Of a DNA stretch of 64,000 bases, positions 4,827 through 57,151 are shown one piece after another (position 1 is the stretch's first letter; each line of letters opens with the position of its first letter). The stretch is from Candidatus Omnitrophota bacterium. GTDB lineage: Bacteria; Omnitrophota; Gorgyraeia; Zapsychrales; Zapsychraceae. The notes under the pieces are model-generated. The model worked only from the letters and a program-made list of their open reading frames with translations, made no database searches and was not told the origin of the DNA. The stretch covers positions 153,778 to 217,777 of the forward strand of contig JAJDCA010000071.1 of assembly GCA_029261055.1 (NCBI GenBank). Direction: 5' to 3'. Made by a program: the position numbers and the translations under genes.

Positions 4827-5978
4827 TTGGAGGAATTTATGGATATTAAAAGGTGTATCAATCTTCGGGCAACCCTTAATAAAAAATCATTATTTTTATT
4901 TGGCCCCAGGCAGACGGGGAAGTCCTGGTTGATCAATCGTTATTTTAAGGATTGTAGAATTTACGATCTTTTGGATAGTGAAACATATCTTTTATTAAAT
5001 CAAAATCCAAAAAGATTAGAACAAGAAATTCAGCCAGAGGATAAGATTGTTGTTATTGATGAAATACAAAAACTTCCATCTCTTCTTGATGAGGTGCATC
5101 GGCTTATTGAACAGAGGGGGCTTCATTTTTTATTGACCGGATCTAGTGCAAGAAAATTACGCCGGGGTGGTGTCAATTTATTGGGGGGGAGGGCGCGGTC
5201 GCGTCATTTACATCCTTTTATTTTTAACGAACTTAATAATCATTTCAATTTATTAAAAGCTCTTAATTATGGTTTGATTCCTTCTATTTATTTTTCTGAT
5301 GCCCCCCAGGAAGATTTAAAAGCATACGCCGGTGATTATTTAAAAGAAGAAATAGCGACGGAAGGGTTAACTCGTAATGTGCCGGCGTTTAGCCGTTTTT
5401 TACAAGTAGCAGCCTTATGCAACGGATTATTAATCAATTATGCCAGTATTTCTAGTGACGCGCAGGTGCCAAGCAGTACGGTTCAGGAGTATTTTCAAAT
5501 TCTACGCGATACCCTTATTGGGTTTGATGTGCCCGCGTGGAAAAAAAGTATAAAGCGTAAGCCTGTGGGTACCTCAAAATTTTATTTTTTTGATGGAGGC
5601 GTTGTTCGATTTTTACAGAATCGATCCCCCTTTGAAGAAAAATCTCCAGAATTTGGAGATGCCTTTGAAACGTACATAGCGCATGAATTAAAATCTTTTA
5701 TTGATTATTCTCTGTCAGGGGAGCTTTGTTACTGGCGCTCTAGATCAGGTTTTGAAGTTGATTTTATTGTTAATGATATGCTGGCGGTGGAGGTAAAAGC
5801 AAAACAAAATATTACACCCAAAGATATGCGTGGTATTAAAGCTTTACAGGAAGAGCATAAATTATCGCATTATGTTATTGTTTCTTTAGAACAGCGGCCT
5901 CGCATTGTAAATAATATTCACATCCTTCCCTGGAAAGATTTTCTTTTTCAATTATGGGATGGGAAATTTAATAAATAG
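4827..5978 (+). CDS. AAA+ superfamily ATPase (AAA_14 + DUF4143 / COG1373 family)
   Basis: Walker A 'GPRQTGKS' and Walker B 'VVIDEIQ'. The C-terminal region is typical of DUF4143. This is the first of three diverged paralogs in the window. Confidence 0.7.
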   Translation: MEEFMDIKRCINLRATLNKKSLFLFGPRQTGKSWLINRYFKDCRIYDLLDSETYLLLNQNPKRLEQEIQPEDKIVVIDEIQKLPSLLDEVHRLIEQRGLHFLLTGSSARKLRRGGVNLLGGRARSRHLHPFIFNELNNHFNLLKALNYGLIPSIYFSDAPQEDLKAYAGDYLKEEIATEGLTRNVPAFSRFLQVAALCNGLLINYASISSDAQVPSSTVQEYFQILRDTLIGFDVPAWKKSIKRKPVGTSKFYFFDGGVVRFLQNRSPFEEKSPEFGDAFETYIAHELKSFIDYSLSGELCYWRSRSGFEVDFIVNDMLAVEVKAKQNITPKDMRGIKALQEEHKLSHYVIVSLEQRPRIVNNIHILPWKDFLFQLWDGKFNK

Positions 5979-6267: not shown

Positions 6268-9200
6268 ATGTTTATTTTACGCCAAAAACAACGGGTGCGT
6301 GTAGCGTACAGAGTGTTATCAGCCTTTATTATGGCCGTATTTTCCGTAACAACAATTATCCCAAGTGGTTATGCACAGAGTGTATCTTTGCCAACGGCAG
6401 GCACGGTTTTAAACCTTCCTGTGCCCGGCACGATGGTGGGCATAACCGAAGGATTTACCCCGGCTCTGATTAAAGGTATTACCATTTATCCGGACAATCC
6501 TTTGATGTTTGATTTTATTGTGGATAGCGGGCATTCTGAGATGACTGGAGAGGCCCTTAAAGATGAGGCGTCTGATATGATTAAATATTTCCTGGCGGCC
6601 TTAACCATTCCGGAAAAGGATTTATGGGTCAACTTGAGCCCGTATGAGGCGGACCGTATTATTCCTGATGGTTTGGGCGACACCTCTATGGGTCGCGATA
6701 TGTTGTCGCAAGATTATATGCTTAAACAACTTACGTCTTCGATGATGTATCCGGAGGATGAGCTGGGTGGTGAATTTTGGGAGCGTGTGTATGATAAGGC
6801 TTATGAAAAATTCGGCAACACCGACATTCCAATGAATACTTTTAACAAAATTTGGATTGTGCCACAGGCGGCTGAAGTCTATGAGCGTGAAAAAAGTGCT
6901 TTTGTAGTGGGCAGCCGTTTAAAGGTTATGTTGGAAGAAGACTATGTCGCTTTGCAGAAAAATTTAGGGGTGGAACAATATGGATTAGATGCGATGCCCA
7001 AGAGCGAGGCCAAGGTTGTCAGTGGTGTCACCTCAGAGGTAGTGCGTGAAGTCTTGATTCCTGAAATCGAACGCGAAATAAACGAAGGCGCCAACTTTGC
7101 CAAACTCCGCCAGATCTACCATGCCATGATTTTGTCTACGTGGTACAAAAAGAGGCTGCAGGAAAGTTTATTGGGACAGGTGTATGTAGATCAAAATAAA
7201 ACCATGGGCGTCGATACTCAGGATAAGCAGATCAACCAAAAAATTTACGATCAATATGTCGAATCTTTTAAAAAAGGCGTGTACAACTACATTAAAGAAG
7301 ATTACAACCCCGCCACCCAACAAATCACCCCCCGCAAATATTTCTCCGGCGGAATGAATCAATCCATGTTGAGCCGTATTTTTAAATTTATGGATAGGCC
7401 GACACGATTTGAGGTAGCACCGACAGGATTTGAGATATCCTACCAAACAAGTCTGATCGATGCCAATAAAGACAATGCGAGTATTGCCGTGCGTGTGAAA
7501 GAAGAGGTTGAATCGCAGGTTGATTTTGTGTTGATGAACTCAGAAAAAGAAATCGTTTCGGATGAGTCGATGCTTCAAGATTTTGATCCGTTTTTTTTGA
7601 TGAGTCTTATAACAAAATGGTCGCCTAAATATGAGGATGATTTAAAGGTATTCCACTTTATAAGGCATTTATATCTTGCCTGGATAGCGACGAAGGGGGA
7701 TCTTGCTAAGGCAACAATGACTTTAACGGAGAAGTCTTCATTTAAAAAATTTATTCAGGATAAAACTTTAGTCAATAAGGCTATTGAAGGGTCGCTTTAT
7801 GTGAATAATCCGAATATTAAAGGTTTGCTAAAAAACATCCGCACAGATATCACCAAGGCTGAAAATAAAATAAAGGCGGTAAGAAGAGAATTTGTTGGGG
7901 TGAATGAAAAAAGTACACAGGAAACGCAGGAGGCGGGGATGATCACGCTTCAGAATGTTCTTTTGAAAAATAAGAGTGCTGGTAAGACAGGGGAGGAGGA
8001 TGTTTTTGGAATAAGCATTAGTCGATTTCCAAGTGATCAATACGGTGAATTCGAGGCAAATTTTATCCAGAAAGATGGAAATACTGTGCAAATAATTGCA
8101 TGGCAAGAAAATAAAATTATTGACGTTGATTACAATCAGACAATGGAAAATTTTTACAAGGATCATAATTTATTTTATCGCAATAATAAAAAAGGGATTC
8201 CAACGGTAATTATTGAGGAAAAGTACGGAAAAAATAGAAAAATTTATAAAATTACACGTGGTGAAGGGCAAGAAGTAATGAAACAAAAGGATTTCAAAGA
8301 GCTTGTTTGGAATGATACGGCGATGGTTACAGATAAAGAAAGTCAGGCCGCTAAGAAGATATTGTTTGATTTTAGAGAAAGTGAAGCTAATAGGATGAAT
8401 ACTGCAAGAATACGAAGAGTCCATGTTCTTATGAATGCAATGAGAATTCGGTATGCCATAGGAAAAGATGAAGGAAGCAGTGTTGTTGGCATATTTTATG
8501 ATATGGAAAAAGCATTCTTGAAAAAGCAATCCAACTTCAAGCACTCAGATGCAATATTATTTTATCATACTGTTTTAGCGTTGGATCTACCAGACGAAGA
8601 ATACGTAACGCTAAAAAATAGTGTGATGCAAAGCTTGTTCCGTTTGGCAGAGAGAATAATGAAGGAAGAGGGGATCGTCATTAGTGTAAAGGAGATTTTA
8701 GCCCAGAAGGAAAAAATAAAAATGGCTATGATAAACGTTTTGCCGCATATGAAGCATTTTAAACATATGGAGTGGGGTGTCTATGATTACATTGATCGGG
8801 TTTTAAGCAGTTCAGATAAGAAATGGGATGAAGTATATTATTACAAGTACAAGGTGGCGATAAGTTTAGGGGAGAGCTATTCCAAGTTAGGGCATTCATT
8901 TGAAGGTGTTTTTGCGAAGATTAAGGGGAAGATAGCTTCTTTTCGGGCCAATGATTATGTAGATGTGTTTAGACAGTTGAATAAAAAATATACCGCGGAT
9001 GCATTGTATCAGGGGTTACCCTACACGGTAGATGGGGTGCGGATTTTTAAATCGAGATTAAAACAATACCGTCAGGATTTCAGATCGGCCATGGATACGC
9101 ACTATAAAAATATTTTTAAACTCGCACTTAAAGGTGAGCTGGAAGACAGTCCTTATGATATTTATGAAAATGAAGGGTCATCATTGCAAAATCAAGCAGG

Positions 9201-11340
9201 TGCGCAACTTTCTACAGAAGAATTAATTTATCTTAATGGCATTGCGGCAGGAAATGAATCGTTCTGGTTAGAAGCGTGGAGAATGCGCAATGCTTTTCAA
9301 AACAGTCCGGATGAGGTCGAAAGACTAATAATCCTTGAGGATGTTTTTAATGGCAAATCAATAGAGTTGGGGCTTTTAAAAATAGAAAAGGACGAAAAAA
9401 AGAAGGATAAGGAAAAAATAGCAATACTTGAAGTTGAAATGAAATCGATCGAAGAAACAATTGACCTTCTTTTAGAGAAAAAGCAAGAGATTTTAAGTGA
9501 AGTAGAGTATGTTGCGGAGGATGAGAATGAACAGAATCTAGCCATGTTAGTAGGGCTGAATCAGAAGATTGATCAATGGCTGCAGGGGCTTGAAAAAGAT
9601 GAAGACGCGGCGATGGCAGCGTTTAAATCATTGCTCCTTAAGATTAAACAGAAAATAACGGGGATATCTAATCGGAAAAAAATTGTTGTCGAGGATATTC
9701 CAGGTCTTGAGACGCTTGGGGTATCGATGGAAAATTTCCTAAATGCAGAAGGTATCCATACACCCAAAGATGCGGCTAAGTTGGGTAAGAGCATCAATGA
9801 GACGATAAACAGAGCGATTAAAGCATTTAGAAAGCGAGGTTCAGTGGATTTTACAGAAGATAATCTTTTCGCACTTCTTCTTAAGAAATATGATGAAAAT
9901 GTGCCCATTAATCGGGACGATTTAATGAAAGATTTAGAAAAATTTTCCCTAGGTGTGTATTCGAATTCTGTTGAGTTTGGCCTTATCAAATTACAATTAC
10001 AAATGAAAGTGTTTCTAAATCGGAACGTCGAGTGGTTTTTGAGTCCTATGCATCACTTTCCTCAAGCGGTGGCCAGGGCCAGTCAAGATAATAATATTGG
10101 GAGAACTATTGAAATGTTGGGCGAAATTTCGACGTATTTAGATGATGGAGTAACCTTTGCTGGAAACGCGGCGAGTAGGATATTCAAGAAGTATAAATAC
10201 ATAGATGAAAATAATTATGAAGAGATGGCCGATGAGTATGCACAAGTAGTGCGTTCTCTTCAAGATCACATCAAACAAATTGCAGATGAAGATCATGAGG
10301 AATTTCAAGAGATGATAGATATTTTAAATGCCAGTATTCAGCAACAGCTTGAAGATGTCTTGGGGGGTATTGCAGAGGCTAAAGTTCCTTATGTAGAAGA
10401 AAGAGGAGGTAAACGTTTTTCCATAGGTATTCCTTATGATTTGAGGGATAGCTTTGCTAAAAATGTAGTGAGTATCTATGAACGCCATACTGACTGGATG
10501 AACATTCTTAAAGTATCTTTAAAAGGGACCTATCGTGATTTGAAAATTAAAATAGATGAAGTGCGGGAGATGGAGAAAAAGTTCATAAATGATTATTTTA
10601 ATGTCAGGCCAAATAGCAATCTTTTGAAGGAAGAAGAAAAAGAAATATATATCCCAAGAGTAGAAGAGTTTTATGAGAAGTTAGCTGAATTTGAAGGAGT
10701 AAAAATGCCATCTAAGGAGAAGCGTTGGATTACGGGGTGGATTTTAAAATTAGAGGGCATATATAAAGGATTAGGAGGGGCAGACAAGGTTATTGATCGC
10801 GTGAATGTAAAGACAATAGGCGACGGCATGGACACCTGGGATGATTTGCCGGATTTTGATCAAATAACGGCAGAATTAGATGACTCCATGATGGCCACGA
10901 CTCTGGCAGAATTGCTAGAGAAATTGAAAATGTCAAAAGATGAAGTGGATAAAAAGGCTGTTACAAAACAAATATTTAGACTGGTGGACGAAGATTTAGA
11001 CGAGCCTTTAAAAGGTAGATTTCTTAAACAATTCACTGAATTAAATGGTGAAACGGATAAAGCGAGCATAACTCCCATTGGTGGTATTAATTTTGATTCG
11101 GCGATGTTGAATTTGCAGATTAAGCGCGATGGGGCTGGGGTGCCCTTGCCTTTGATTGAGCAGGATATGGATTTGGGTATGCGTGTCCAAGGATTTTTGC
11201 CGATTATTATTAATGCTACTCCAGTAAGCCTGCCGCAGTTGCTTGGTTTTTCCGATACTGTACCGCAAGAGGCCGATTCTTCGACTATGAGTCTGTCTTA
11301 TCACATCCTCACCCGCGACCCGCAGGATATTATCATTTAA
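6268..11340 (+). CDS. Giant secreted/surface protein of unknown function (1690 aa). N-terminal conserved domain, long K/E-rich coiled-coil centre, conserved C-terminal ~65-aa module
   Basis: N-terminal signal/anchor (positively charged, then hydrophobic, AQS). Residues ~40-375 are about 70% identical to the 52327 paralog. The central region is strongly lysine/glutamate-rich with heptad-like repeats. The C-terminal block GGINFDSAMLNLQIKRDGAGVPLP…LPIIINATPVSLPQLLGF is shared with the paralog. I recognise no known domain. Confidence 0.75.
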   Translation: MFILRQKQRVRVAYRVLSAFIMAVFSVTTIIPSGYAQSVSLPTAGTVLNLPVPGTMVGITEGFTPALIKGITIYPDNPLMFDFIVDSGHSEMTGEALKDEASDMIKYFLAALTIPEKDLWVNLSPYEADRIIPDGLGDTSMGRDMLSQDYMLKQLTSSMMYPEDELGGEFWERVYDKAYEKFGNTDIPMNTFNKIWIVPQAAEVYEREKSAFVVGSRLKVMLEEDYVALQKNLGVEQYGLDAMPKSEAKVVSGVTSEVVREVLIPEIEREINEGANFAKLRQIYHAMILSTWYKKRLQESLLGQVYVDQNKTMGVDTQDKQINQKIYDQYVESFKKGVYNYIKEDYNPATQQITPRKYFSGGMNQSMLSRIFKFMDRPTRFEVAPTGFEISYQTSLIDANKDNASIAVRVKEEVESQVDFVLMNSEKEIVSDESMLQDFDPFFLMSLITKWSPKYEDDLKVFHFIRHLYLAWIATKGDLAKATMTLTEKSSFKKFIQDKTLVNKAIEGSLYVNNPNIKGLLKNIRTDITKAENKIKAVRREFVGVNEKSTQETQEAGMITLQNVLLKNKSAGKTGEEDVFGISISRFPSDQYGEFEANFIQKDGNTVQIIAWQENKIIDVDYNQTMENFYKDHNLFYRNNKKGIPTVIIEEKYGKNRKIYKITRGEGQEVMKQKDFKELVWNDTAMVTDKESQAAKKILFDFRESEANRMNTARIRRVHVLMNAMRIRYAIGKDEGSSVVGIFYDMEKAFLKKQSNFKHSDAILFYHTVLALDLPDEEYVTLKNSVMQSLFRLAERIMKEEGIVISVKEILAQKEKIKMAMINVLPHMKHFKHMEWGVYDYIDRVLSSSDKKWDEVYYYKYKVAISLGESYSKLGHSFEGVFAKIKGKIASFRANDYVDVFRQLNKKYTADALYQGLPYTVDGVRIFKSRLKQYRQDFRSAMDTHYKNIFKLALKGELEDSPYDIYENEGSSLQNQAGAQLSTEELIYLNGIAAGNESFWLEAWRMRNAFQNSPDEVERLIILEDVFNGKSIELGLLKIEKDEKKKDKEKIAILEVEMKSIEETIDLLLEKKQEILSEVEYVAEDENEQNLAMLVGLNQKIDQWLQGLEKDEDAAMAAFKSLLLKIKQKITGISNRKKIVVEDIPGLETLGVSMENFLNAEGIHTPKDAAKLGKSINETINRAIKAFRKRGSVDFTEDNLFALLLKKYDENVPINRDDLMKDLEKFSLGVYSNSVEFGLIKLQLQMKVFLNRNVEWFLSPMHHFPQAVARASQDNNIGRTIEMLGEISTYLDDGVTFAGNAASRIFKKYKYIDENNYEEMADEYAQVVRSLQDHIKQIADEDHEEFQEMIDILNASIQQQLEDVLGGIAEAKVPYVEERGGKRFSIGIPYDLRDSFAKNVVSIYERHTDWMNILKVSLKGTYRDLKIKIDEVREMEKKFINDYFNVRPNSNLLKEEEKEIYIPRVEEFYEKLAEFEGVKMPSKEKRWITGWILKLEGIYKGLGGADKVIDRVNVKTIGDGMDTWDDLPDFDQITAELDDSMMATTLAELLEKLKMSKDEVDKKAVTKQIFRLVDEDLDEPLKGRFLKQFTELNGETDKASITPIGGINFDSAMLNLQIKRDGAGVPLPLIEQDMDLGMRVQGFLPIIINATPVSLPQLLGFSDTVPQEADSSTMSLSYHILTRDPQDIII

Positions 11341-11408: not shown

Positions 11409-12737
11409 ATGAAAAGATTCATAGAAGAAGAATTAATAAAGTGGAAAGATGATTCAGATCGAAAGCCGCTTATTCTTTCAGGGGCTCGGCAAGTTGGCAA
11501 GTCTTATGTCATAGAACGCAACTTTTCTTCCAATTTTGATCAGGTTTTAAGTATCAACTTTGAAAAACAGCCTGAGTTTAAGGATTGTTTTGAGTCAGAC
11601 TTATCACCGGGAAAAATTATTCGTAAAATTGAGGCTTTAAGCCAGAAAAGAGTAGATATTGGTCGAACCCTAGTTTTTTTGGATGAGATTCAAATTTGCC
11701 CAAAAGCCATAACGGCTTTGCGGTATTTTTATGAAGAACTTCCTGCCTTACACCTTATCGCCGCGGGATCGCTGCTTGAGTTTACAATGGAAAGTATTTC
11801 TGTGCCTGTGGGGAGGGTAACTTACCGTCATTTAACTCCGTTATCATTTGAAGAATTTCTTTATAATTCCGGGAATGAAATTTTATTAGAAGAAATATCA
11901 CGGCATAATTTTGATGCCCCGTTTGATAAGGTGGTGGCTCAAAAAGCGGAAGTTCTTCTTAAAGAATATATGGCGATTGGAGGGATGCCGCAGGTTGTAG
12001 ATCGGTATATTCAGAATCAAGATTATTTAAAATGTCAGGAAATTTTGTCAGATTTGCTGGAAACTTATACTAACGATTTCCCTAAATATGGTCGAAGGGA
12101 TGCGGATTTGAAATATATTGATTTAGTTTTCGCGAGAGCTGCGCATCTCGTAGGAAAGCAGTTTAAATATGTTCATATTACGCGGGATATTCAATCAAAA
12201 TACATCAAACAAGGCGTTGACCTTCTTGTTAAGGCTGGCGTTTTGTCCTTGATTTACAAAACATATGGTTCTCCTCTGGGGGCTAATTATAATCCGCATC
12301 GTTTTAAGCTGCTATTTCTTGACATTGGTCTCATGCAAAGGGCATGTGGTTTGAACATATCTAGATGGGTAAGTGATGGGCATGATTTGATTCACGCAGG
12401 GGTGATCGCTGAACAGTTTGTAGGGCAGGAAATTGCAGCACATGCACATTTTAAAAAAGGAAGACTGTATTATTGGGAGAGAGACAAAAGGGGGAGTTCT
12501 GCGGAACTTGATTATCTTGTGGAAATGGCTGGGCGCATTCTACCTGTTGAGGTTAAATCAGGAACCATCGCCAGGTTAAAGAGTTTGCAGAATTTTCTGA
12601 AAGCGCATCCTGATATTCCTGAAGGAATTAAAGTATCTCTCGACAATTCTGGAAAGAAACAAAATATTCGTTCAATCCCGCTGTACGCCTTTGGGAGCTG
12701 GTTAAAACGGCAGGATTATACTAAATCTATTAAATAA
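11409..12737 (+). CDS. AAA+ superfamily ATPase (AAA_14 + DUF4143 / COG1373 family)
   Basis: Walker A 'GARQVGKS' and Walker B 'LVFLDEIQ'. Second paralog, immediately downstream of the giant gene. Confidence 0.7.
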   Translation: MKRFIEEELIKWKDDSDRKPLILSGARQVGKSYVIERNFSSNFDQVLSINFEKQPEFKDCFESDLSPGKIIRKIEALSQKRVDIGRTLVFLDEIQICPKAITALRYFYEELPALHLIAAGSLLEFTMESISVPVGRVTYRHLTPLSFEEFLYNSGNEILLEEISRHNFDAPFDKVVAQKAEVLLKEYMAIGGMPQVVDRYIQNQDYLKCQEILSDLLETYTNDFPKYGRRDADLKYIDLVFARAAHLVGKQFKYVHITRDIQSKYIKQGVDLLVKAGVLSLIYKTYGSPLGANYNPHRFKLLFLDIGLMQRACGLNISRWVSDGHDLIHAGVIAEQFVGQEIAAHAHFKKGRLYYWERDKRGSSAELDYLVEMAGRILPVEVKSGTIARLKSLQNFLKAHPDIPEGIKVSLDNSGKKQNIRSIPLYAFGSWLKRQDYTKSIK

Positions 12738-19704: not shown

Positions 19705-21203
19705 AAAAATTAATAAAAAAGAGTGCCCCGATACTTCTAGTTTGTTTTTCTGCGATATTGCTCACCTTGGCTTTTCCTAAAACTGACGTATGGATTTTGA
19801 CATGGATTGGGCTTGTGCCATTAATGTTGGCTTTGGATGGGCAGAAGCCGTTTAAAGCGTTTTGGACGGCATATTTTTGTGGCGTGCTTTTTTTTGCCGG
19901 TACGCTGTATTGGCTTGTTCATGTCACGATTCCTGGGGCGATGCTTATGGTTTTGGTTTTGTCTGTTTATTTTGGTTTGTTTGGTTGGGGTTATAGTTAT
20001 TTTTCTGGTCAAAAGCCAGTGTGGAAATTATTTTTACTGCCTAGCCTTTGGGTAGGGTTAGAGTTTTTACGTACACATCTTTTTACTGGTTTTGGGTGGG
20101 CGAGTTTAGGATATTCGCAGTATAAAAATTTACCAGTGATTCAAATAGCAGATATTACCGGCCTATTTGGTGTTTCATTTTTGATTGTGATGGTGAATGT
20201 TTTTTTGAAGGAATGGATCGTAACCACAAGCAGACCTCCGAGGTTTGTTTGTGGTCTGATTGTGGTGATTACGCTTGGAATTGTTTTAGGGTATGGAGGT
20301 TTTCGTCTCAATGAAAAGGATAGTTCTTCGGGGATGTCCGTAGCGGTTGTTCAGGCTAATATTCCGCAAGAAATGAAATGGCGGGAATCGGCTTGGCCAA
20401 GCATTATGAAAAAATATTTGGCCTTAACCGAAAAAGCATCTCAAGATCAGCCAGATCTTATTATTTGGCCTGAAACAGCTTTTCCAGGGTTTTTGTGGGA
20501 AGATGATGATGTATTAAAAGATGTAAGGCAATTGGTACGCAATATTCAAATACCTTTATTGTTTGGCTCTGTTGTAAAGGAGGGGGGGGACTATTATAAT
20601 TCGGCTATTTTCCTCGACAAAGATGGTGAATTCTCTGAAGGTTATAATAAAATACATTTAGTCCCTTTTGGTGAATATATTCCTTTGCGAGGATTTTTTC
20701 CGTTTTTAAGTGATATTGTGCCAATCGCAGACTTTACACCAGGTAATCAATATACTGTTTACAAAAAAGGTTTTTCAGTTTTAATTTGTTTTGAAGATAC
20801 GATAGCCTGGTTGACAAGACAATTTGTAGGGCAAGGGGCGCAATGGTTGATTAATATTACGAATGATGCATGGTTTCAAGATACAAAAGAACCTTTTATG
20901 CATTTGCAAGGATCGGTTTTTCGTGCGATTGAAAATAGAAGAAATCTTGTCCGGGCTGCGAATACAGGGGTAAGTTGTTTTATTGATTCTTATGGAAGGA
21001 TTGTGCAGAAATTGCAGAATCAAAATCAAAAAACAACCTTCATCGCTGGTTCCTCCACGGGAACGGTTTATTTAAGGGATAGAAAATCTTTTTATACAAA
21101 ATATGGAGATGTTTTTGCATATTTATGTTTTGGGTGTATACTGATGGGTGTTGTGTTAAGAAATTTAAAAATTTCTGGAGAAAAATATGAAAAATATACT
21201 TGA
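19692..21203 (+). CDS. lnt: Apolipoprotein N-acyltransferase
   Basis: N-terminal multi-TM region plus C-terminal CN-hydrolase domain (…LIIWPETAFPGF…, C in ICFEDT). Confidence 0.75.
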   Translation: MLRVEKLIKKSAPILLVCFSAILLTLAFPKTDVWILTWIGLVPLMLALDGQKPFKAFWTAYFCGVLFFAGTLYWLVHVTIPGAMLMVLVLSVYFGLFGWGYSYFSGQKPVWKLFLLPSLWVGLEFLRTHLFTGFGWASLGYSQYKNLPVIQIADITGLFGVSFLIVMVNVFLKEWIVTTSRPPRFVCGLIVVITLGIVLGYGGFRLNEKDSSSGMSVAVVQANIPQEMKWRESAWPSIMKKYLALTEKASQDQPDLIIWPETAFPGFLWEDDDVLKDVRQLVRNIQIPLLFGSVVKEGGDYYNSAIFLDKDGEFSEGYNKIHLVPFGEYIPLRGFFPFLSDIVPIADFTPGNQYTVYKKGFSVLICFEDTIAWLTRQFVGQGAQWLINITNDAWFQDTKEPFMHLQGSVFRAIENRRNLVRAANTGVSCFIDSYGRIVQKLQNQNQKTTFIAGSSTGTVYLRDRKSFYTKYGDVFAYLCFGCILMGVVLRNLKISGEKYEKYT

Positions 21204-21918
21204 TAATGTAAAAACGATAGGTGTTTTATTATCCGTATTATTTGGCATTTCCTTGATTAATTATCTCTTTGTTTTCCACGTTGAGGGTTTTAGTTGGAAC
21301 ACAGTTTTTTTAATTGTTTTATTTGTAGGCTCATTTGTGGGCTCATTAGCCGTGATTTGTTTACAAGATTGGGGGAGGGTTGTATTAGTTTTGGCGCACG
21401 CTTTTTTGGCAGTGTATTTTATAAAACCCTATTTAATAATGGACAATATTTTATCCATTGGATACGTATCTATAAGTATTATAATTATTCTTTTTTTTAC
21501 CCAAGAACAAACCAAAACACGCTTTTTGGTAAAAGGTGGAAAAGTCGATTGGAAATCTATTTTAGTTGTTGATGATGATGAAACTTTGTTGAGGACGATT
21601 CGTCCAATTCTGATTACGCATGGCTATTCTGTTTTAACGGCAAATACAGGTGAAAGCGGCTTACAAGTTGCGATTAGCCAGAAACCTGATTTAATTATTT
21701 TGGATGTTATTCTTCCGGGAATGATAGGAAGAAAGGTATGTGAAAATTTAAAATCAAACCCAGCCACCAAAAATATTCCTGTGGTTTTTTTAACGGCAAA
21801 AGATTCTGCTTATGATATTCAAGCCGAAATGGATGTCGGCGGTGAAGCGCATTTAACTAAGCCGGTTAATGCGAAGGCACTAATTGAAACCATCCGAAAT
21901 GTCCTCAAGATGCGGTAA
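21187..21918 (+). CDS. Membrane-anchored response-regulator receiver (REC) domain protein
   Basis: Three predicted TM helices, then a CheY-like receiver (ILVVDDDETLL…LIILDVILPGMIG…FLTAKD…). No output domain. The start overlaps the lnt end. Confidence 0.6.
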   Translation: MKNILDNVKTIGVLLSVLFGISLINYLFVFHVEGFSWNTVFLIVLFVGSFVGSLAVICLQDWGRVVLVLAHAFLAVYFIKPYLIMDNILSIGYVSISIIIILFFTQEQTKTRFLVKGGKVDWKSILVVDDDETLLRTIRPILITHGYSVLTANTGESGLQVAISQKPDLIILDVILPGMIGRKVCENLKSNPATKNIPVVFLTAKDSAYDIQAEMDVGGEAHLTKPVNAKALIETIRNVLKMR

Positions 21919-50592: not shown

Positions 50593-51762
50593 TTACAAAT
50601 CATTCAAGAGGTGGATATCAGAAGGGTCTTTTATGATAAGTTTTTTGGTGGCTTTTATGCGGTTGAAAAGGTTTAATTGCTTTTTAGTAAGTTCTCGATA
50701 ATATTTTGATTCAATTAAGGTTTTATTTTGTGTATAGAAATCAATTTCTATGCCGTCCTCGTATATGTAAGATGGGCTTGCCTGACGGATTTTTAAGAAA
50801 ATATAGTTTTCAAAAAGGCTCCCTTTGTCTCGAAACCCTGTAAACAAAGTGCGTATGCCAAGGTCCGGGGCGTAGCCTTTTTTAGGGGATAGAAGTGTTT
50901 CATTAGTTTTACCATGGCGTGGGATAAGGTAAATTAAGTAGGTTTCGGCAAACATCGAAAGATAGCGTTTAGCTGTATCGGGCGCAATAGAGAGTATTTT
51001 AGCCATTTTATTGATACTTATTTGTTTGCCGGCACGTTCCATAAGGAGCATGAAATAGTCTTTTATCATTTGAGGATTCTTAATGTTATGATAGGCAATA
51101 ATATCTTTATAAATAATGTCATCGACCAGGGTTTTTAAATATTCACGATCTGGGTGGAGAACATATTCAGGGATACCACCGGTTTTCATATAATCTTCAA
51201 AATACGGTTCTTTAAGATAGTTTTCTTTTTGTTTGATGGTGATGTTACGAAATTGGCAAAATTCTTCAAAATCAAGTGGGGCGATTTCTAAAATACGTTC
51301 TCTTCCGGTTAAAAGTGCTTTTTTATCTTTGAGTAAAGAAGTGCTTGAGGAAGACGTATAAATTTTTACGTTTTGATTGTCATAAAGGTTTTTTAGTTGT
51401 AAATGTGGATTTTTTTTGTAGGTAATTTCATCAAGAAAAAGATAGATTTTTTTGTTAAGAGGCAGTTTGAAAATTTTGCGATATTCTGAAATGATATCAA
51501 GGATGGATTTATTTATTAAGGTATAATCATCCAGGCTCACATAAAAAATGTGTTTTGGGTTAGCTCCTTTATGAATAAGCCGTTGGATAAAAAGTTTCAA
51601 TAGAGTCGTTTTTCCAACCCTTCGTAAGCCGGTAAGGATAACGATTGATTTTGTGTTGAGAAGATTTTCCATGGAAGAAAGTATGCGCGGACGATCTTTA
51701 ATTGCTTCTAGTGAAATGGGCTCTTCCCACCATGGATTGTATTGGTAGAGTGTTTCTTTCAT
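50593..51762 (-). CDS. AAA+ superfamily ATPase (AAA_14 + DUF4143 / COG1373 family)
   Basis: Walker A 'GLRRVGKTT' and Walker B 'YLFLDEIT'. Start trimmed to MKETLYQYNPWWEE by analogy with the paralogs. Third paralog, divergent to the second giant gene. Confidence 0.65.
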   Translation of the reverse strand: MKETLYQYNPWWEEPISLEAIKDRPRILSSMENLLNTKSIVILTGLRRVGKTTLLKLFIQRLIHKGANPKHIFYVSLDDYTLINKSILDIISEYRKIFKLPLNKKIYLFLDEITYKKNPHLQLKNLYDNQNVKIYTSSSSTSLLKDKKALLTGRERILEIAPLDFEEFCQFRNITIKQKENYLKEPYFEDYMKTGGIPEYVLHPDREYLKTLVDDIIYKDIIAYHNIKNPQMIKDYFMLLMERAGKQISINKMAKILSIAPDTAKRYLSMFAETYLIYLIPRHGKTNETLLSPKKGYAPDLGIRTLFTGFRDKGSLFENYIFLKIRQASPSYIYEDGIEIDFYTQNKTLIESKYYRELTKKQLNLFNRIKATKKLIIKDPSDIHLLNDL

Positions 51763-52162
51763 GCCTAAAGTATACGTTATAATCGTATATTTATCAAGGA
51801 AATTATACGATAATGATAAAATAATAATGTAATTGTTAAATACCATGAAATAAGAAATTGACAATTTTGAATATCATGTCCTTAAGATATGTAAGTATTT
51901 AGCATTCTGAGTTGTCGAAGAGCGTTAAAAGCATGAAATTATTTCTAGCAGGACATTGAAAGCCCTGCGCATTCCATGCTGACACCGGGGAATTTTCTGA
52001 GTGTTTTCTTAAAAAAATAAGTATTTTAAAAGAAATGTATCATGTTTTAAATCAATAGGTTATGCAATCTACAAATTTCTTCATTTTTATAATATATTAT
52101 AACATTATTTATTTCAATATGTTATGAATCATCTGGCTTCATTTCTCTCCACTTGACACTCG

Positions 52163-52273: not shown

Positions 52274-52326
52274 AAAAATTAATTAGACATTGAACTACAA
52301 TGTTTTTTCATAATCCGGAGGAAATA

Positions 52327-55300
52327 ATGAACATTTACATAAAAAAACAACGTTTTTGTCTGTTTTACAGGGCTTTATCCGCCTTTATTGCCGTGGCATT
52401 CCTAACCACCAGCATTGTGCCGCAAGGGTTTGGGCTGAGCGCAGTCGAAGCCTATGCGCAGAGTATGTCTGTGCCAGCACCAATAGTGTTAAATTTGCCT
52501 GTACCGGGTACAATGGTCGGCATGACCGAAGTATTTACACCGGCAATGGTCAAGGGCATCACTATTCATCCGGATAATCCGCTTTTATTTGATTTTCTCA
52601 TCAATAAAGGGGATACCCATCTTAAAGGCGACGAATTAAAGACGGAAGCCAATAAATTGATTAAATATTTTTTGGCGGGCCTAACCGTGCCGGAGAAAGA
52701 AATGTGGGTTAACCTCAGTCCGTACGAAGCAGATAGAATTATCCCTGAAGGTTTTGGCGATACCGAAATGGGCCGGGATTTGCTTGCGCAAGATTACATT
52801 TTAAAACAGCTCACCTCATCATTGATGTATCCAGAAGATGAATTAGGTGAGGCCTTTTGGCAACGTGTTTATGAAAAATCTTATGAAAAATTTGGTCATA
52901 CAGATATTCCGATGAACACATTTAACAAAATTTGGATCGTGCCGGAAAACGCATCTGTGTATGAACACGAAGAAACTTCGACCGTGTATTTAGTGGATAG
53001 TCATTTGAAGGTGATGCTTGAAGAAGATTATGTTGCTGCGCAACATAATAGTGACGCGTCGCTCGTGGCTCGTGACTCGAAAAAACATTCGGATATCAAG
53101 CGCGCCACGCGTCACGCCATGCCTGCCGGCAGGCAGGAGCGACTAGCGACGAACCTTATCCGAGAGATTCTTATCCCCGAAATCGAACGCGAAGTCAACC
53201 AAGGCAAAACGTTCGCCAATCTGCGCCAGATTTATCATTCCGTTATTCTGGCCACGTGGTACAAACGAAAATTTGCTGTAGGGAACGAGCACCTGCCTGC
53301 CGGTAGGCAAGGTGCCCAATCCTTATTAGGACACGTGTATGTAGATCAAAACAAAACCAAAGGTGTAGATACGCAGGATAAAGACATTAACCAAAAGATT
53401 TATAATCAGTACGTCGAATCTTTCAAGAAAGGCGTTTACGATTACATCAAAGAAGATTATGATCCCGCGACTCGACAGATCATCCCGCGGAAATATTTCT
53501 CAGGAGGAGCGGAGCTTTTTCTGGCCAAAATAAATCACGCTATGCTCACTCCAGAAAGGCGTGTAGAGATAACAAGCGAGGGTAAGAATACAGATCGTGT
53601 TGTAGTGGAATTGAATGAAATCGGATTAAAAGGTACTGACTATGCACAAGTAGTTACAGATTCAGGAGAATATTTACAGCGGGCAGGTGATATTAAAAGT
53701 GCGGAAAATGTAGATGCAGTAATTAGTCCTATTGTCGATAATGCGATGCAAACATTTCCAGGCTTAATGAATAAATTTTCAAAGGATGGGTATGTTTTAC
53801 ATGCATTGGAACGAGGAGCTGATTTAACGCCTTGGGATGGAGAGGTTGTTATGGAATTGCTTGGTCAAATGACTGAAGGGCGTGAGTATGCGAATGGAGT
53901 TATTTATGATTCGGGTCATTATAGAAGCAGAAGTTTTACTTATTTTAACATGCCATTTTTGAGTGAATTGAGTGAAGATATTATTAGGTTTTCCGTTGAT
54001 TCATCTCATAAAAATCCAATCGAAGTAGTAGATACATCTGAAAATTTTGAGTTTTTTCTTGGTGAAAATAAAGAAACACAAAAAATTGAATTTTTAGCTT
54101 GGGAATGGAAACGACGCGATGTGAGCTATGAAGAACATAACATTTCCTATAAAGGTGAAAATGGGAAATATGATGTTCTTAAAATAAGCCCTAAGCAATA
54201 TGGGAATGTTTTGAGTAAAGGATTTGGAGTTGAAGAAAAACCTTCTAGTAATCAGATTGCCTATTTAGGGGCTACACAACTAAAAGGGAAAGAGTTTAAG
54301 GAATGGAATTTTTCTAATATTGAAGAAACTTCTCAGGGAAAGTGGGGGCATGGCTCTTCATATAGTATGGATTATCCTGAGTTTAAGAAAGACTTTATTC
54401 ATTACACGCAATATAGAAATGATGATGTAGATTTAATGACACACGTTTATTCAATTCCAGTAATTATGAAAGATAATCTTTCTTATAATATGGGTAAAAA
54501 TAAAAATAGCGAAGGTTTTGAAATTCGTATTGGCAGAAATAAAAATAGAGAAATTGAGTTTATGTTGTTAACAGCTCCACAAAAAATTATTTTAAGGTAT
54601 AAAAATAAGCTAGGAATGCCGAAAAGTAAAGTGATAACGAAAGCTGAACGTGATCAAATTTTAAAAGATCCGACAATAATTAATACAATAATATTTAATA
54701 GTAAGAAAATGTCCAAGGAATGGGTTGTTGATGAGGCAAAGGAAAAAGAATTTTCAGAAAACACTAAAACACGTATTCTAAATAATCAGGTAATAGTAGA
54801 TGAGCATACTAAGGTATTAAAAAATAAGAGAGTTGTGGAGATTAAAGAAAATGGAAAGAAGCCCTCCAACTTAATGCCGGAGAATAAAAAAGAACATGAA
54901 AAAGTTATGCGTATTAATAAAATAATAGAAGAGATGAAGTCGGTTGTTAAGAACCATTCTTTTCGTGACCTTTATTTTGGTCCAATTCTAGGACGAAAAA
55001 ATATTAAATCTTTTCGTGATTATTTAATAGCAGGGAATATACAAGACATTCAGGCGATTGTTTCTGGTATGAATCCACAGAAGGCAAAAGATAAGGGAGA
55101 AAAAAAGATTTTTAGAAAATATTATGAAAGTCCAAAATTTTCTAATTTAGCAACACAAATCAAATCAAAAGCAAAAGCTTTAATAGATAAGCTTCCTCAA
55201 ATCAAGGGAAAAAATCTAGAAGCCGAGATAAATTCTTTTCGTGAAGATGTTTTAAATGAAATTGAAAATCTTGATGCGGCGATGATTGGAAATGGTCAAG

Positions 55301-56097
55301 ATAATACCACCGTGTCGGCAGAAATAAAGCCAACTATCGTTATGATAGAAGATAAGGACGAACCTAATTCTAGCGAGCCTGATAAAGCTATGATGGAGAA
55401 AAAGACAATTTTATTAGTTGAGGATGATGAAGATATAAGAAAAGGATTGAAGGATTTCTTTGAGTCGAGAGATTACAATGTTATTGCGATGGAAAATGGT
55501 AAAGAGGCTTTAACACTTATAATAAAGAGAAAGGAAATGAAAGAGCCTCTTGATCTTGTTATAAGTGACTTAGATATGCCAGAGATGGATGGGATGGAGT
55601 TGCTAGAAAATGCAGAAAAAATATGGCCCGAATTACTTTTTATTATGCAATCAGGGAGAATGCCTTCAAATATTTCTGGTTTGCTTGAGAGGAAATCTAA
55701 TGTACATAAGGCTTTGGATAAAAGATTTGCTTTAGAGAAATATGAATCTGCGTTAAATGATTTGTGGGGGGATGTTGATTCAGCAATGATAAGGGCGGAG
55801 GAAGTGACGGGGGTAAATAAAGTTGGTGGTATCAATCTTGACCCGGCCATGCTGGATTTGCAGATCAAGCGTGATGGCAACGGTGTACCATTGCCGGTGA
55901 GTGAACAGGATTTTTCGATGATGCATATTGAAGGGGTTTTGCCTGTTATTATCAATGTAACGCCAGTTAATATTCCTATGCTGCTAGGTTTTGCAAATGA
56001 CGTACTCCCTGTTGCTGGCTGTCCATCGGATGATGAAATGATTGATTGCGATCGCGACTTGATTTCCATCAAACCGGAAGAGGAGGTTTTTTTGTAG
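52327..56097 (+). CDS. Giant secreted/surface protein paralog (1256 aa) with an embedded CheY-like receiver (REC) domain near the C-terminus
   Basis: Start at the ATG preceded by CCGGAGGA. N-terminal ~400 aa are about 70% identical to the 6268 protein. REC domain at ~residues 1030-1150 (LLVEDDEDIRK…LVISDLDMPEMDG…IMQSG…). C-terminal module GGINLDPAMLDLQIKRDGNGVPLP…LPVIINVTPVNIPMLLGF is shared with the paralog. Confidence 0.75.
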   Translation: MNIYIKKQRFCLFYRALSAFIAVAFLTTSIVPQGFGLSAVEAYAQSMSVPAPIVLNLPVPGTMVGMTEVFTPAMVKGITIHPDNPLLFDFLINKGDTHLKGDELKTEANKLIKYFLAGLTVPEKEMWVNLSPYEADRIIPEGFGDTEMGRDLLAQDYILKQLTSSLMYPEDELGEAFWQRVYEKSYEKFGHTDIPMNTFNKIWIVPENASVYEHEETSTVYLVDSHLKVMLEEDYVAAQHNSDASLVARDSKKHSDIKRATRHAMPAGRQERLATNLIREILIPEIEREVNQGKTFANLRQIYHSVILATWYKRKFAVGNEHLPAGRQGAQSLLGHVYVDQNKTKGVDTQDKDINQKIYNQYVESFKKGVYDYIKEDYDPATRQIIPRKYFSGGAELFLAKINHAMLTPERRVEITSEGKNTDRVVVELNEIGLKGTDYAQVVTDSGEYLQRAGDIKSAENVDAVISPIVDNAMQTFPGLMNKFSKDGYVLHALERGADLTPWDGEVVMELLGQMTEGREYANGVIYDSGHYRSRSFTYFNMPFLSELSEDIIRFSVDSSHKNPIEVVDTSENFEFFLGENKETQKIEFLAWEWKRRDVSYEEHNISYKGENGKYDVLKISPKQYGNVLSKGFGVEEKPSSNQIAYLGATQLKGKEFKEWNFSNIEETSQGKWGHGSSYSMDYPEFKKDFIHYTQYRNDDVDLMTHVYSIPVIMKDNLSYNMGKNKNSEGFEIRIGRNKNREIEFMLLTAPQKIILRYKNKLGMPKSKVITKAERDQILKDPTIINTIIFNSKKMSKEWVVDEAKEKEFSENTKTRILNNQVIVDEHTKVLKNKRVVEIKENGKKPSNLMPENKKEHEKVMRINKIIEEMKSVVKNHSFRDLYFGPILGRKNIKSFRDYLIAGNIQDIQAIVSGMNPQKAKDKGEKKIFRKYYESPKFSNLATQIKSKAKALIDKLPQIKGKNLEAEINSFREDVLNEIENLDAAMIGNGQDNTTVSAEIKPTIVMIEDKDEPNSSEPDKAMMEKKTILLVEDDEDIRKGLKDFFESRDYNVIAMENGKEALTLIIKRKEMKEPLDLVISDLDMPEMDGMELLENAEKIWPELLFIMQSGRMPSNISGLLERKSNVHKALDKRFALEKYESALNDLWGDVDSAMIRAEEVTGVNKVGGINLDPAMLDLQIKRDGNGVPLPVSEQDFSMMHIEGVLPVIINVTPVNIPMLLGFANDVLPVAGCPSDDEMIDCDRDLISIKPEEEVFL
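53120..53135. repeat. Palindromic repeat copy (tgcctgccggcaggca) inside the giant gene, encoding an MPAGRQE insertion
   Basis: 16-bp perfect palindrome. It coincides with an extra peptide segment that is absent from the paralog. Confidence 0.55.
53289..53315. repeat. Imperfect palindromic repeat copy (cacctgcctgccggtaggcaaggtg) inside the giant gene, encoding a …HLPAGRQGAQ insertion
   Basis: Same family. It coincides with a 13-aa in-frame insertion relative to the paralog (KRKFAVGNEHLPAGRQGAQSLLG vs KKRLQESLLG). Confidence 0.5.
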
Positions 56098-56180: not shown

Positions 56181-56473
56181 GTAGTAGAATAATTATATGA
56201 TGGAATCGTGTAATTTCTAAATAAATCATACGATTACAGCTGAATATGTTTTAATGATCCATTATTTTTCCGTTTGCTTGATTTCTATAGGATGTACCCG
56301 TATACTTATAAATTCAAGAAGGGAATATATTATGAAAAATAATATTTTTAAGGCGGGTTATCAACAAGATGAGAAAGATTGTTTTATTGAGGAGTACAGC
56401 GACGAAAGAGTTCAAGAATTTATGGAGGAAGATAGTTTGGATAAGGTAACAGCGGATAAGATGAAAGCCTTTA

Positions 56474-57151
56474 ATGGCGCATAAAATTCTAATTATCGAA
56501 GATGACCGGGATATTGCGGAGATGATTGAGTATAATTTGCAGCGGGAGGGGTATGTGGTTCTGAAGGTGTTTGATGGTCAGGAGGCTTTGCCGGCGGTTA
56601 CGCGGCATCGGCCGGATTTGGTTATTTTGGATATTATGTTGCCTTCGGTGGATGGGTTGGATATCTGTAAGGCTTTGCGTAGAGATGAAACTACCATTGA
56701 TCTTCCGATTATTATGTTAACTGCCAAATCGCAAGAGTCGGATAAGGTGATTGGTTTGGAGCTCGGGGCCGACGATTATGTGACCAAGCCTTTTAGTCCG
56801 CGCGAATTGATGGCTAGGGTTAAGGCGGTGCTGCGACGGACGAAAGTAGATAAATCTTCGTCCAAAACTTCTTTCGGCCCTGTAATCATTGATCATAAAC
56901 GTCACAGGGTTGACGTGGATGGTCAGGAGGTTATGTTGACGGCTACGGAATTTAAGCTATTAGATTTCTTGGTCCAAAAGACAGGGGCGGTTGTTTCACG
57001 TGATCAGATTCTTGATGCGGTTTTTGGGTACAGCTCCGAAGTGTATGACCGCACGGTCGACGCCCATATTAAATCCCTACGTAAGAAACTGGGACCTGCC
57101 AAAGATTACATTGAAACCATCCGGGGTTTTGGATATCGATTCAAAGAGTAA
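56474..57151 (+). CDS. phoB: OmpR/PhoB-family response regulator
   Basis: REC domain (ILIIEDDRDIAEM…LVILDIMLPSVDG…) plus winged-helix output (…RGFGYRF). Adjacent to a PhoR-like kinase, a Na/Pi cotransporter and a PhoU-like gene. Confidence 0.75.
   Translation: MAHKILIIEDDRDIAEMIEYNLQREGYVVLKVFDGQEALPAVTRHRPDLVILDIMLPSVDGLDICKALRRDETTIDLPIIMLTAKSQESDKVIGLELGADDYVTKPFSPRELMARVKAVLRRTKVDKSSSKTSFGPVIIDHKRHRVDVDGQEVMLTATEFKLLDFLVQKTGAVVSRDQILDAVFGYSSEVYDRTVDAHIKSLRKKLGPAKDYIETIRGFGYRFKE

Follow-up and report, generated by a model that had tools for sequence, protein, structure and literature searches.

The CheY-like receiver (REC) domain near the C-terminus of the protein encoded from position 52327 (the target) of a 64,000-nucleotide stretch of Candidatus Omnitrophota DNA (the window; contig JAJDCA010000071.1 of assembly GCA_029261055.1, positions 153,778 to 217,777 of the forward strand) may well be a cargo module of a Sec-exported, almost cysteine-free modular protein, which belongs to a very large family that was essentially restricted to Omnitrophota in our searches; we hold this explanation with about even confidence. 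Complete members of the family share a common frame, in which a predicted signal and an N-domain of about 350 amino acids (aa) stand in front, and a module of about 56 aa (the C-module) followed by an acidic tail stands at the end. The stretch between these constant modules is, as far as the sequences tell, freely exchangeable and holds predicted domains otherwise known from the cytoplasm.

The sole Pfam domain found in the target was PF00072 (Response_reg), which matched aa 1037-1148 (nucleotides (nt) 55408-55743) with an E-value of 9e-16 and a score of 58.5 bits, compared with a gathering cut-off of 30.2, and covered profile positions 1-106 of 111. In NCBIfam the receiver domain was matched only in part, by models of many two-component proteins, and neither Trans_reg_C nor any other output domain was detected in the target by Pfam. 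The active-site residues were mapped by aligning the domain to CheY, Spo0F, the PhoB-like regulator of the window and other receivers. E1041 and D1042 (plus D1043) of the LLVEDDED motif were found at the positions of CheY D12 and D13, D1090 of LVISDLDMPEMDG was the phospho-acceptor at the position of D57, and S1118 of IMQSG occupied that of T87, so that the REC domain which an earlier note on this DNA had read from these motifs, between 55350 and 55760, was recovered with its acidic pair, Asp and Ser aligned. K1141 (LDKRF) fell on the conserved Lys of the solved receiver 3kcn_A in a gap-free phmmer alignment that ran through beta5 and alpha5.

The part of the domain that follows beta4 departed from canonical receivers, with Ala1138 in place of the CheY Tyr106 switch residue and Lys-Arg where they have Lys-Pro, and a small receiver hidden Markov model (HMM) of our own aligned only to about profile position 87-100. 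The structure prediction proposed in the earlier note gave a confident AlphaFold fold for beta1-beta4, with a block-mean predicted local distance difference test score (pLDDT) of about 91-98, but alpha4-beta5-alpha5 had a pLDDT below 50 and no beta5 was modelled after residue 1118. When the REC model was compared with known structures by Foldseek, solved receivers were retrieved at probability 1.0, with a target-normalised template modelling (TM) score of up to 0.75. Judged by its residues, the phosphorylation pocket is intact, and the output face is divergent or uncertain.

Of about 194 C-module proteins, at least 11 had REC domains, often as two or three tandem copies, and in five family members, much as in the target, only 18-43 residues separated a REC copy from the C-module that follows it. 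The conservation of the active site in homologs, which the earlier note had left to be checked, held up, since the acidic pair and the residues at the D57 and T/S87 positions were kept in nearly all full-length family copies. The nearest family RECs (P0227 and P0313) were closer to the target than ordinary regulators were, which suggests that a REC lineage has been maintained inside the family.

We placed the start of the gene at 52327, as the earlier note had assumed, and not at 52300, because a GGAGG lies upstream at a suitable spacing and the homologs begin at the equivalent Met. The product from this ATG is a modular protein of 1,256 aa, and an identical 1,265-aa product was found on an independently assembled Logan contig (run SRR15505515). 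The N-terminus reads MNIYIKKQRFCLFYR-ALSAFIAVAFLTTSIV-PQGFGLSAVEAYA/QS (the slash marks the predicted cleavage site), with a net charge of +4 in the n-region, a core of about 16 hydrophobic aa followed by Pro/Gly breakers, and Ala at -3 and -1. The positive n-region, together with a net charge of -2 in the 40 residues after the predicted cleavage site, predicts an N-in/C-out orientation according to the positive-inside rule.

The same pattern was common across 151 family N-termini, bearing out the export-type N-terminus that the earlier note had recognised from its charged segment, hydrophobic core and AYA/QS ending. The n-region charge was +2 or more in 94% of them, the uncharged stretch had a median of 18 residues, and Ala-Gln occurred in 136 of the 151, about 8 residues ahead of a conserved LNLPxPGTMV, the -3 residue being A, S, V, G or T in 122 of these 136. 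Ordinary exported proteins of the window had the same signal ending (AIA/QD in BatD and AMA/QI in a TPR-SH3 protein). No second transmembrane-like helix was found in the target; the only other hydrophobic stretch was VLPVIINVTPVNIPMLLGF in the C-module, which contains conserved prolines and was not modelled as a helix. We considered the C-module as a transmembrane tail anchor and rejected it, because of its three conserved prolines, the lack of a modelled helix and the acidic, not basic, tail that follows. By these sequence rules, the target carries a Sec-type signal peptide with a predicted cleavage at AYA/QS; by the length of its core (16-18 aa), a signal and an anchor are hard to tell apart.

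The mature target contained two Cys in 1,212 residues, both in the tail (Poisson probability 4e-4), and the mature paralog that the window also encodes (Table 1) contained none in 1,654 (Poisson probability 4e-8). The two cysteines of the target tail (..VAGCPSDDEMIDCDRD..) are 11 residues apart. We counted 32 Cys in the 93,000 residues of 48 full-length family members (0.034%) and 30 in the 56,722 residues of 120 N-domain matches (0.053%), compared with 162 in 15,823 (1.02%) for all other proteins of the window, 71 in 5,565 (1.28%) for its cytoplasm-type proteins and 8 in 2,669 (0.30%) for its signal-bearing soluble proteins. At 78 related loci of other genomes, family ORFs (open reading frames) had 0.13% Cys versus 1.07% in neighbouring ORFs (Mann-Whitney p 5e-26). 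The depletion is thus about 8- to 30-fold, is stronger than in the ordinary exported proteins of the window and extends to members with enzyme domains. The exclusion of Cys from exported proteins is an established trait in some bacteria (PMC2823432). From this family-wide depletion we read the whole chain, REC included, as adapted to leave the cytoplasm unfolded.

The N-domain had 1,285 matches in the protein collection, with source names that were mostly Candidatus Omnitrophota or Omnitrophica, and it was encoded at more than 573 loci when a single genome was scanned for each species; nearly all of the loci listed were Omnitrophota/Omnitrophica or 'uncultured Planctomycetales' by name, with several copies per genome. 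The family genes of the genomes named 'uncultured Planctomycetales bacterium' were as near to the query as those of named Omnitrophota, and that name is probably a generic or wrong taxon label. The N-domain showed no match in Pfam or NCBIfam even at lax thresholds (E<=10); AlphaFold gave a mixed alpha/beta model with a predicted TM score (pTM) of 0.66, for which Foldseek found no match in PDB or BFVD. Two or three family copies stood in tandem at 12 of the 78 loci. Family genes were often arranged head-to-tail (e.g. L006, L015, L018, L025, L050 and L054), the C-module ending up to about 700 nt before the next signal, with up to three copies within 9 kb.

The C-module has the consensus GGIDLNPALLDLQIKRDGNGVPLP..QQPI..M.IEGF.PVIINITPV.NLPLLLG, followed by the variable acidic tail, with GGI, I.R, LP, Q, I.G, P.I, P, P and G as invariant positions. 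With a limit of E<=1e-3 its profile matched 3,995 cluster representatives, 2,151 of which also passed 1e-10, and in the best 150 of the 3,995 matches, which came from proteins of up to 5,808 aa, the module was at or near the C-terminus. It had no Pfam or NCBIfam match at E<=10, and AlphaFold modelled it as mostly non-helical (mostly coil), with a block-mean pLDDT of 56-85. Nearly all long complete C-module proteins also began with the signal and the N-domain.

The first 400 or so residues of the paralog were 60% identical to those of the target, and a C-terminal stretch of about 65-85 residues was 48-60% identical. The sequence comparison showed that the middle region is not common to the two proteins: that of the paralog was unrelated to the target and had no REC domain in the Pfam search, and that of the target (aa 405-1030), whose local G+C is 0.33, had no Pfam match at E<=10 and no NCBIfam match. 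Such a pair hardly fits the signalling scaffold that the earlier note had suggested for the two proteins, because the paralog lacks a REC and the family consists of hundreds of proteins with variable cargo, often in tandem arrays.

A census of the cargo was made with Pfam on 36 mid-sized and 15 large family members. Apart from REC, it contained phosphoglucomutase (PGM) domains I-IV, UDP-glucose pyrophosphorylase (UDPGP), phosphofructokinase (PFK), phosphoglycerate kinase (PGK), adenylate kinase, pyruvate phosphate dikinase (PPDK), malate synthase, aminotransferase, CheR methyltransferase, GHMP kinase, UDP-glucose dehydrogenase, carbohydrate phosphorylase, and HEAT and WD40 repeats; ankyrin, HAD, HATPase_c and an ABC ATPase half were found in database fragments. 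Cytoplasm-type cargo is thus, by domain content, the predicted rule in the family, of which the target REC is one instance.

A class of C-module proteins lacking a signal (a 153-aa J-domain protein, an ABC-ATPase half, and PGK, HAD and HATPase fragments) was also considered, and was withdrawn for the J-domain case, the one examined: the 153-aa 'J domain-containing protein' of NCBI turned out to be the 3' end of a much longer ORF at locus L002 (Table 1), which runs without interruption over 1,047 aa and comprises a signal, the N-domain, a J domain and the C-module. About 3.2 kb upstream of the 153-aa call were without any called gene. Most short C-module matches came from tiny contigs, and many of the short database entries of the family are probably under-calls or contig-end fragments.

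Several observations weigh against the REC domain being the cargo of an exported protein. The cargo of the family fits poorly with work outside the cytoplasm, since it includes ATP-, NAD- and S-adenosylmethionine-dependent enzymes, a J domain needs Hsp70 and a REC needs a phosphodonor; one member carries a glucose-6-phosphate isomerase (PGI) domain (E 8e-195) that has the look of a functional enzyme. The alpha4-beta5-alpha5 face of the target is divergent and poorly modelled, the core of 16-18 aa and the whole signal of about 38-44 aa are rather long for signals that are cleaved, and the Cys depletion bears on location only indirectly and could have another cause. Moreover, no conserved neighbour of the family was found in the neighbourhoods of the 78 loci, and neither a secretion apparatus nor a receptor for the C-module was identified. 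Finally, according to a 2026 preprint (bioRxiv 10.64898/2026.06.07.730766), DeepTMHMM assigns some of the giant proteins of Omnitrophota to 'SP' and others to 'TM only'.

The main rival, which still stands because of the enzyme domains in the family, is a cytoplasmic scaffold tethered to the membrane through an uncleaved anchor or an unused signal, with the body and the REC in the cytoplasm of the producer, a resident kinase and cytosolic substrates. It agrees with a cargo in which cytoplasm-type domains greatly predominate (REC, J domain, HATPase_c, CheR, PGM, UDPGP, PGI, PFK and PGK, and also adenylate kinase, PPDK, malate synthase and aminotransferase), with the conserved catalytic residues of the REC and with a hydrophobic core that is long for a signal peptide, and the 2026 preprint weighs it for the 46% of giants called 'TM only'. 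We nevertheless consider it unlikely, because the charge distribution predicts N-in/C-out and not N-out, an anchor needs no small-x-Ala/Gln site with upstream prolines, which is present in 90% of members, there is no stop-transfer segment after the N-domain, and a cytoplasmic location offers no reason for the Cys depletion of the family. The dilemma that the earlier note had posed, between an unusual topology or export and a cytoplasmic tether, was real and rightly put, and the conserved signal with its -3/-1 pattern, the absence of a second transmembrane helix and the Cys depletion make us favour export over the tether.

It is also conceivable, and in our opinion quite unlikely, that the protein is exported with a pseudo-receiver, which would serve as a structural or protein-binding module and never be phosphorylated. 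To our knowledge, no kinase or phosphodonor of two-component systems is expected outside the cytoplasm. Most family RECs, that of the target included, have a divergent output face, and the short alignment to our own HMM, the low pLDDT without a beta5 after beta4, and the Ala and Lys-Arg substitutions described above all point in the same direction. Such domains, however, usually lose the Mg2+/phosphoryl pocket, whereas the acidic pair, D57 and T/S87 were kept in essentially all full-length family RECs across deep divergence; the Pfam score was well over the cut-off, and the ungapped, colinear alignment to a solved receiver puts a Lys at the K109 position. An artefact, in which a chimeric assembly or fused genes would have joined a small cytoplasmic regulator with its own internal start to the rest of the protein, seems very improbable to us. 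The Met-Met-Glu-Lys-Lys-Thr-Ile-Leu-Leu-Val-Glu-Asp-Asp ahead of the REC does resemble the N-terminus of a stand-alone regulator, and gene callers often cut family members short, as in the 153-aa J-domain call, but the identical product on the independently assembled contig, the recurrence of the signal, N-domain, cargo and C-module layout in many genomes, and the Cys depletion shared by the REC and everything downstream of it argue against this. An internal translation start for the REC at the ATG at 55390 was rejected because no Shine-Dalgarno sequence precedes it, unlike the GGAGG at the true start.

In the favoured explanation, that of a REC carried as cargo by an exported protein, the signal would carry the unfolded chain across the inner membrane, as the sequence rules and the exclusion of cysteine lead us to propose. 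The N-domain and the C-module, being constant across unrelated cargo, would serve to handle or address the chain, either in docking or in a second step of transport. The REC, with a working phospho-acceptor pocket, would then probably be phosphorylated only where phosphodonors exist; these may be found at or inside the cytoplasm of a partner or prey, or may be small-molecule donors, and would not include the neighbouring PhoR.

The coordinates of the target, its parts and related features are shown in Table 1.

Table 1. Positions of the target gene, its modules and related genes (positions in the window unless a locus is named).
Feature	Position	Strand	Description
Target ORF	52300..56097	+	open frame; residue numbering counts from 52300, so that Met10 is the start
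Shine-Dalgarno sequence	52313..52317	+	GGAGG, five bases 5' of ATG 52327; read from the sequence
Target gene	52327..56097	+	from ORF list and translation
Predicted Sec-type signal peptide	52327..52458	+	aa 10-53; MNIYIKKQRFCLFYR, core ALSAFIAVAFLTTSIV, P.G.G breakers, AYA/QS
Family N-domain	52459..53511	+	aa 54-404; QS..LNLPVPGTMVG through PRKYFSGG
Variable middle region	53512..55389	+	aa 405-1030; Lys/Asn-rich
REC (CheY-like receiver) domain	55390..55758	+	aa 1031-1153; E1041, D1042, D1043, D1090, S1118, K1141
C-terminal module	55825..55992	+	aa 1176-1231; GGINLDPAMLDLQIKRDGNGVPLPVSEQDFSMMHIEGVLPVIINVTPVNIPMLLGF; about 56 aa, nearly invariant in the family
Variable acidic tail	55993..56094	+	aa 1232-1265; 29% Asp+Glu
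Paralog	6268..11340	+	1,690 aa; signal (..SGYA/QS), N-domain to about nt 7353, C-module nt 11080-11250
AAA_14 + DUF4143 ATPase gene	4827-5978	+	directly adjoins a family paralog
AAA_14 + DUF4143 ATPase gene	11409-12737	+	directly adjoins a family paralog
AAA_14 + DUF4143 ATPase gene	50593-51864	-	directly adjoins a family paralog
J-domain family ORF	L002 5319-8462		GCA_015232565.1, JADFZK010000032.1

The acidic tails of the homologs, like that of the target, were both variable and acidic. Upstream of the target we found an AAA_14/DUF4143 ATPase, the TPR-SH3 protein, BatD and CysN/D, and downstream of it phoB, phoR, a Na/Pi transporter and PhoU. The earlier note had drawn attention to the phoB/phoR pair next to the gene, a link that did not survive the comparison of loci: the phoB and phoR queries each matched at 3 of the 78 related loci, and PhoU and the Na/Pi transporter had no match at any of them. 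The four genes are a self-contained phosphate unit, and because the adjacency of phoB/phoR is not conserved, we regard it as incidental. No terminator-like site was found on the + strand 3' of the target stop codon. The Logan contig carries an additional call, an ORF of 76 aa (window 56254-56484, + strand), which has no Pfam match, lies between the target and phoB and overlaps the start of phoB. Two AAA_14 + DUF4143 genes flank the paralog and one precedes the target; a conserved association of these ATPases with the family was rejected, because it occurred at 2 of the 78 loci.

Some further observations concern the window and the related loci. At L002, weak PIN-domain genes (8556-9017 and 10598-11068; E 7e-4 and 9e-5, just under the Pfam cut-off) come after family genes and have small ORFs downstream, and a similar-looking small ORF (1030-1245) follows a REC-carrying fragment at L001; the PIN-domain genes and the small ORFs are possibly toxin-antitoxin pairs. 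The window also encodes a 243-aa protein (21187-21918, + strand) with a hydrophobic N-terminal half, which contains transmembrane-like windows, and a C-terminal REC (aa 125-237, E 4e-24); this protein has no relationship to the family and is a stand-alone receiver bound to the membrane. The GC skew was positive in every 2-kb bin of the window (1-64000), and 42 of the 47 ORFs of at least 150 aa were on the + strand; the window as a whole seems to belong to a single leading-strand replichore. The G+C content dips to 0.31-0.33 at 30-32 kb and at 54-56 kb, the latter corresponding to the Lys/Asn-rich middle of the target.

Giant multi-domain proteins of Omnitrophota were named 'Archaeovorins' by West-Roberts et al. 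(bioRxiv 10.1101/2023.11.21.568195), whose preprint describes regions with a predicted extracellular location that contain glycolytic-enzyme, HATPase, HAD, GGDEF and CheY-like receiver domains, and warns that this prediction could stem from an overlooked transmembrane helix. The 2026 preprint (bioRxiv 10.64898/2026.06.07.730766) lists 916 proteins of at least 10 thousand aa (kaa), with PF00072 in 105 and PGM in 88 of them, and a signal peptide or transmembrane helix in 94% according to DeepTMHMM. Both preprints place cytoplasm-type domains, by prediction, outside the cytoplasm and regard the matter as unresolved. The giants and the target have in common their occurrence in Omnitrophota, an N-terminal signal or anchor and cytoplasm-type domains on a long chain, and our cargo census matches the published lists, which include REC, PGM, HATPase_c, HAD, HEAT and glycolytic enzymes. 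In contrast, the target, with its 1,256 aa, is no ORF of more than 20 kb or protein of at least 10 kaa, has no internal transmembrane helices, and lacks the upstream type-II/IV-like secretion locus and the downstream pilZ genes. In our searches of the two preprints, neither the N-domain and the C-module nor cysteine came up. The paradox of the class has been reported before; what seems to be new is the pair of modules that define it, together with the cysteine signal.

The family is similar to type IX C-terminal domain (CTD) proteins and autotransporters in having a Sec signal in front, a conserved C-terminal module and arbitrary cargo between them, and autotransporter passengers are cysteine-poor too. 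However, the C-module matched no Por_Secre_tail or autotransporter HMM at E<=10, is only about 56 aa long with no predicted beta-sandwich or barrel and is followed by an acidic tail, and a constant N-domain is present only in the family; a Por_Secre_tail domain was found alongside the C-module in 1 of 36 relatives. Dockerin enzymes and S-layer homology (SLH) proteins resemble the family in bearing a small constant terminal module on many signal-bearing proteins. This module serves them as a docking tag, and S-layer-type proteins are typically cysteine-free. Here, unlike in those systems, there was no match to the dockerin (PF00404) or SLH HMMs, the C-module having a single DGNG-like turn, the cargo is cytoplasm-type and not carbohydrate-active or adhesive, and no cohesin-like partner was identified.

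The target REC shares with CheY, Spo0F and PhoB the beta1-beta4 receiver fold, the acidic pair, the Asp and the Ser/Thr, has a Lys that aligns with the conserved one, and differs from them in lying about 1,000 residues into a signal-bearing protein, in having no known output domain and no evident cognate kinase, and in its divergent alpha4-beta5-alpha5 face. Chlamydiae, which are usually placed together with Planctomycetes and Verrucomicrobia in an assemblage to which Omnitrophota are also linked, provide an analogy only: their glycogen-metabolism enzymes are reportedly secreted into the inclusion lumen (work attributed to Gehre and colleagues, 2016, eLife), so that sugar-phosphate or glycogen enzymes would be exported in both cases in order to work outside their own cytoplasm, but the chlamydial enzymes use type III secretion without Sec signals and lack constant modules at head and tail.

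The Omnitrophota, among them some predators, are ultra-small bacteria of widespread occurrence. The small members of the family (0.5-6 kaa) show the same paradox of location as the giants, and they are tractable and can be searched for through the two constant modules, with the exclusion of cysteine as an independent, quantitative argument on location. A protein of 1.3 kaa with a single REC of intact pocket offers a practical test object for the class. In the Omnitrophota predator Velamenicoccus archaeovorus, open cytoplasmic contact with the prey and transfer of predator RNA into it have been described (PMC13153191). We tentatively propose, as a possible but rather doubtful extension, that the signal, the N-domain and the C-module are the cargo marks of an Omnitrophota-specific route by which a predator or parasite would deliver unfolded, cysteine-free chains to the cytoplasm of its partner, either inside it or up against it. 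If such a route existed, its cargo would be a set of 'cytoplasmic' effectors that keeps diversifying: the REC domains may act as phosphate sinks or sensors of arrival, the J domains would capture the Hsp70 of the host, the sugar-phosphate enzymes would divert its carbon, and the giant 'Archaeovorins' would follow the same principle in concatenated form.

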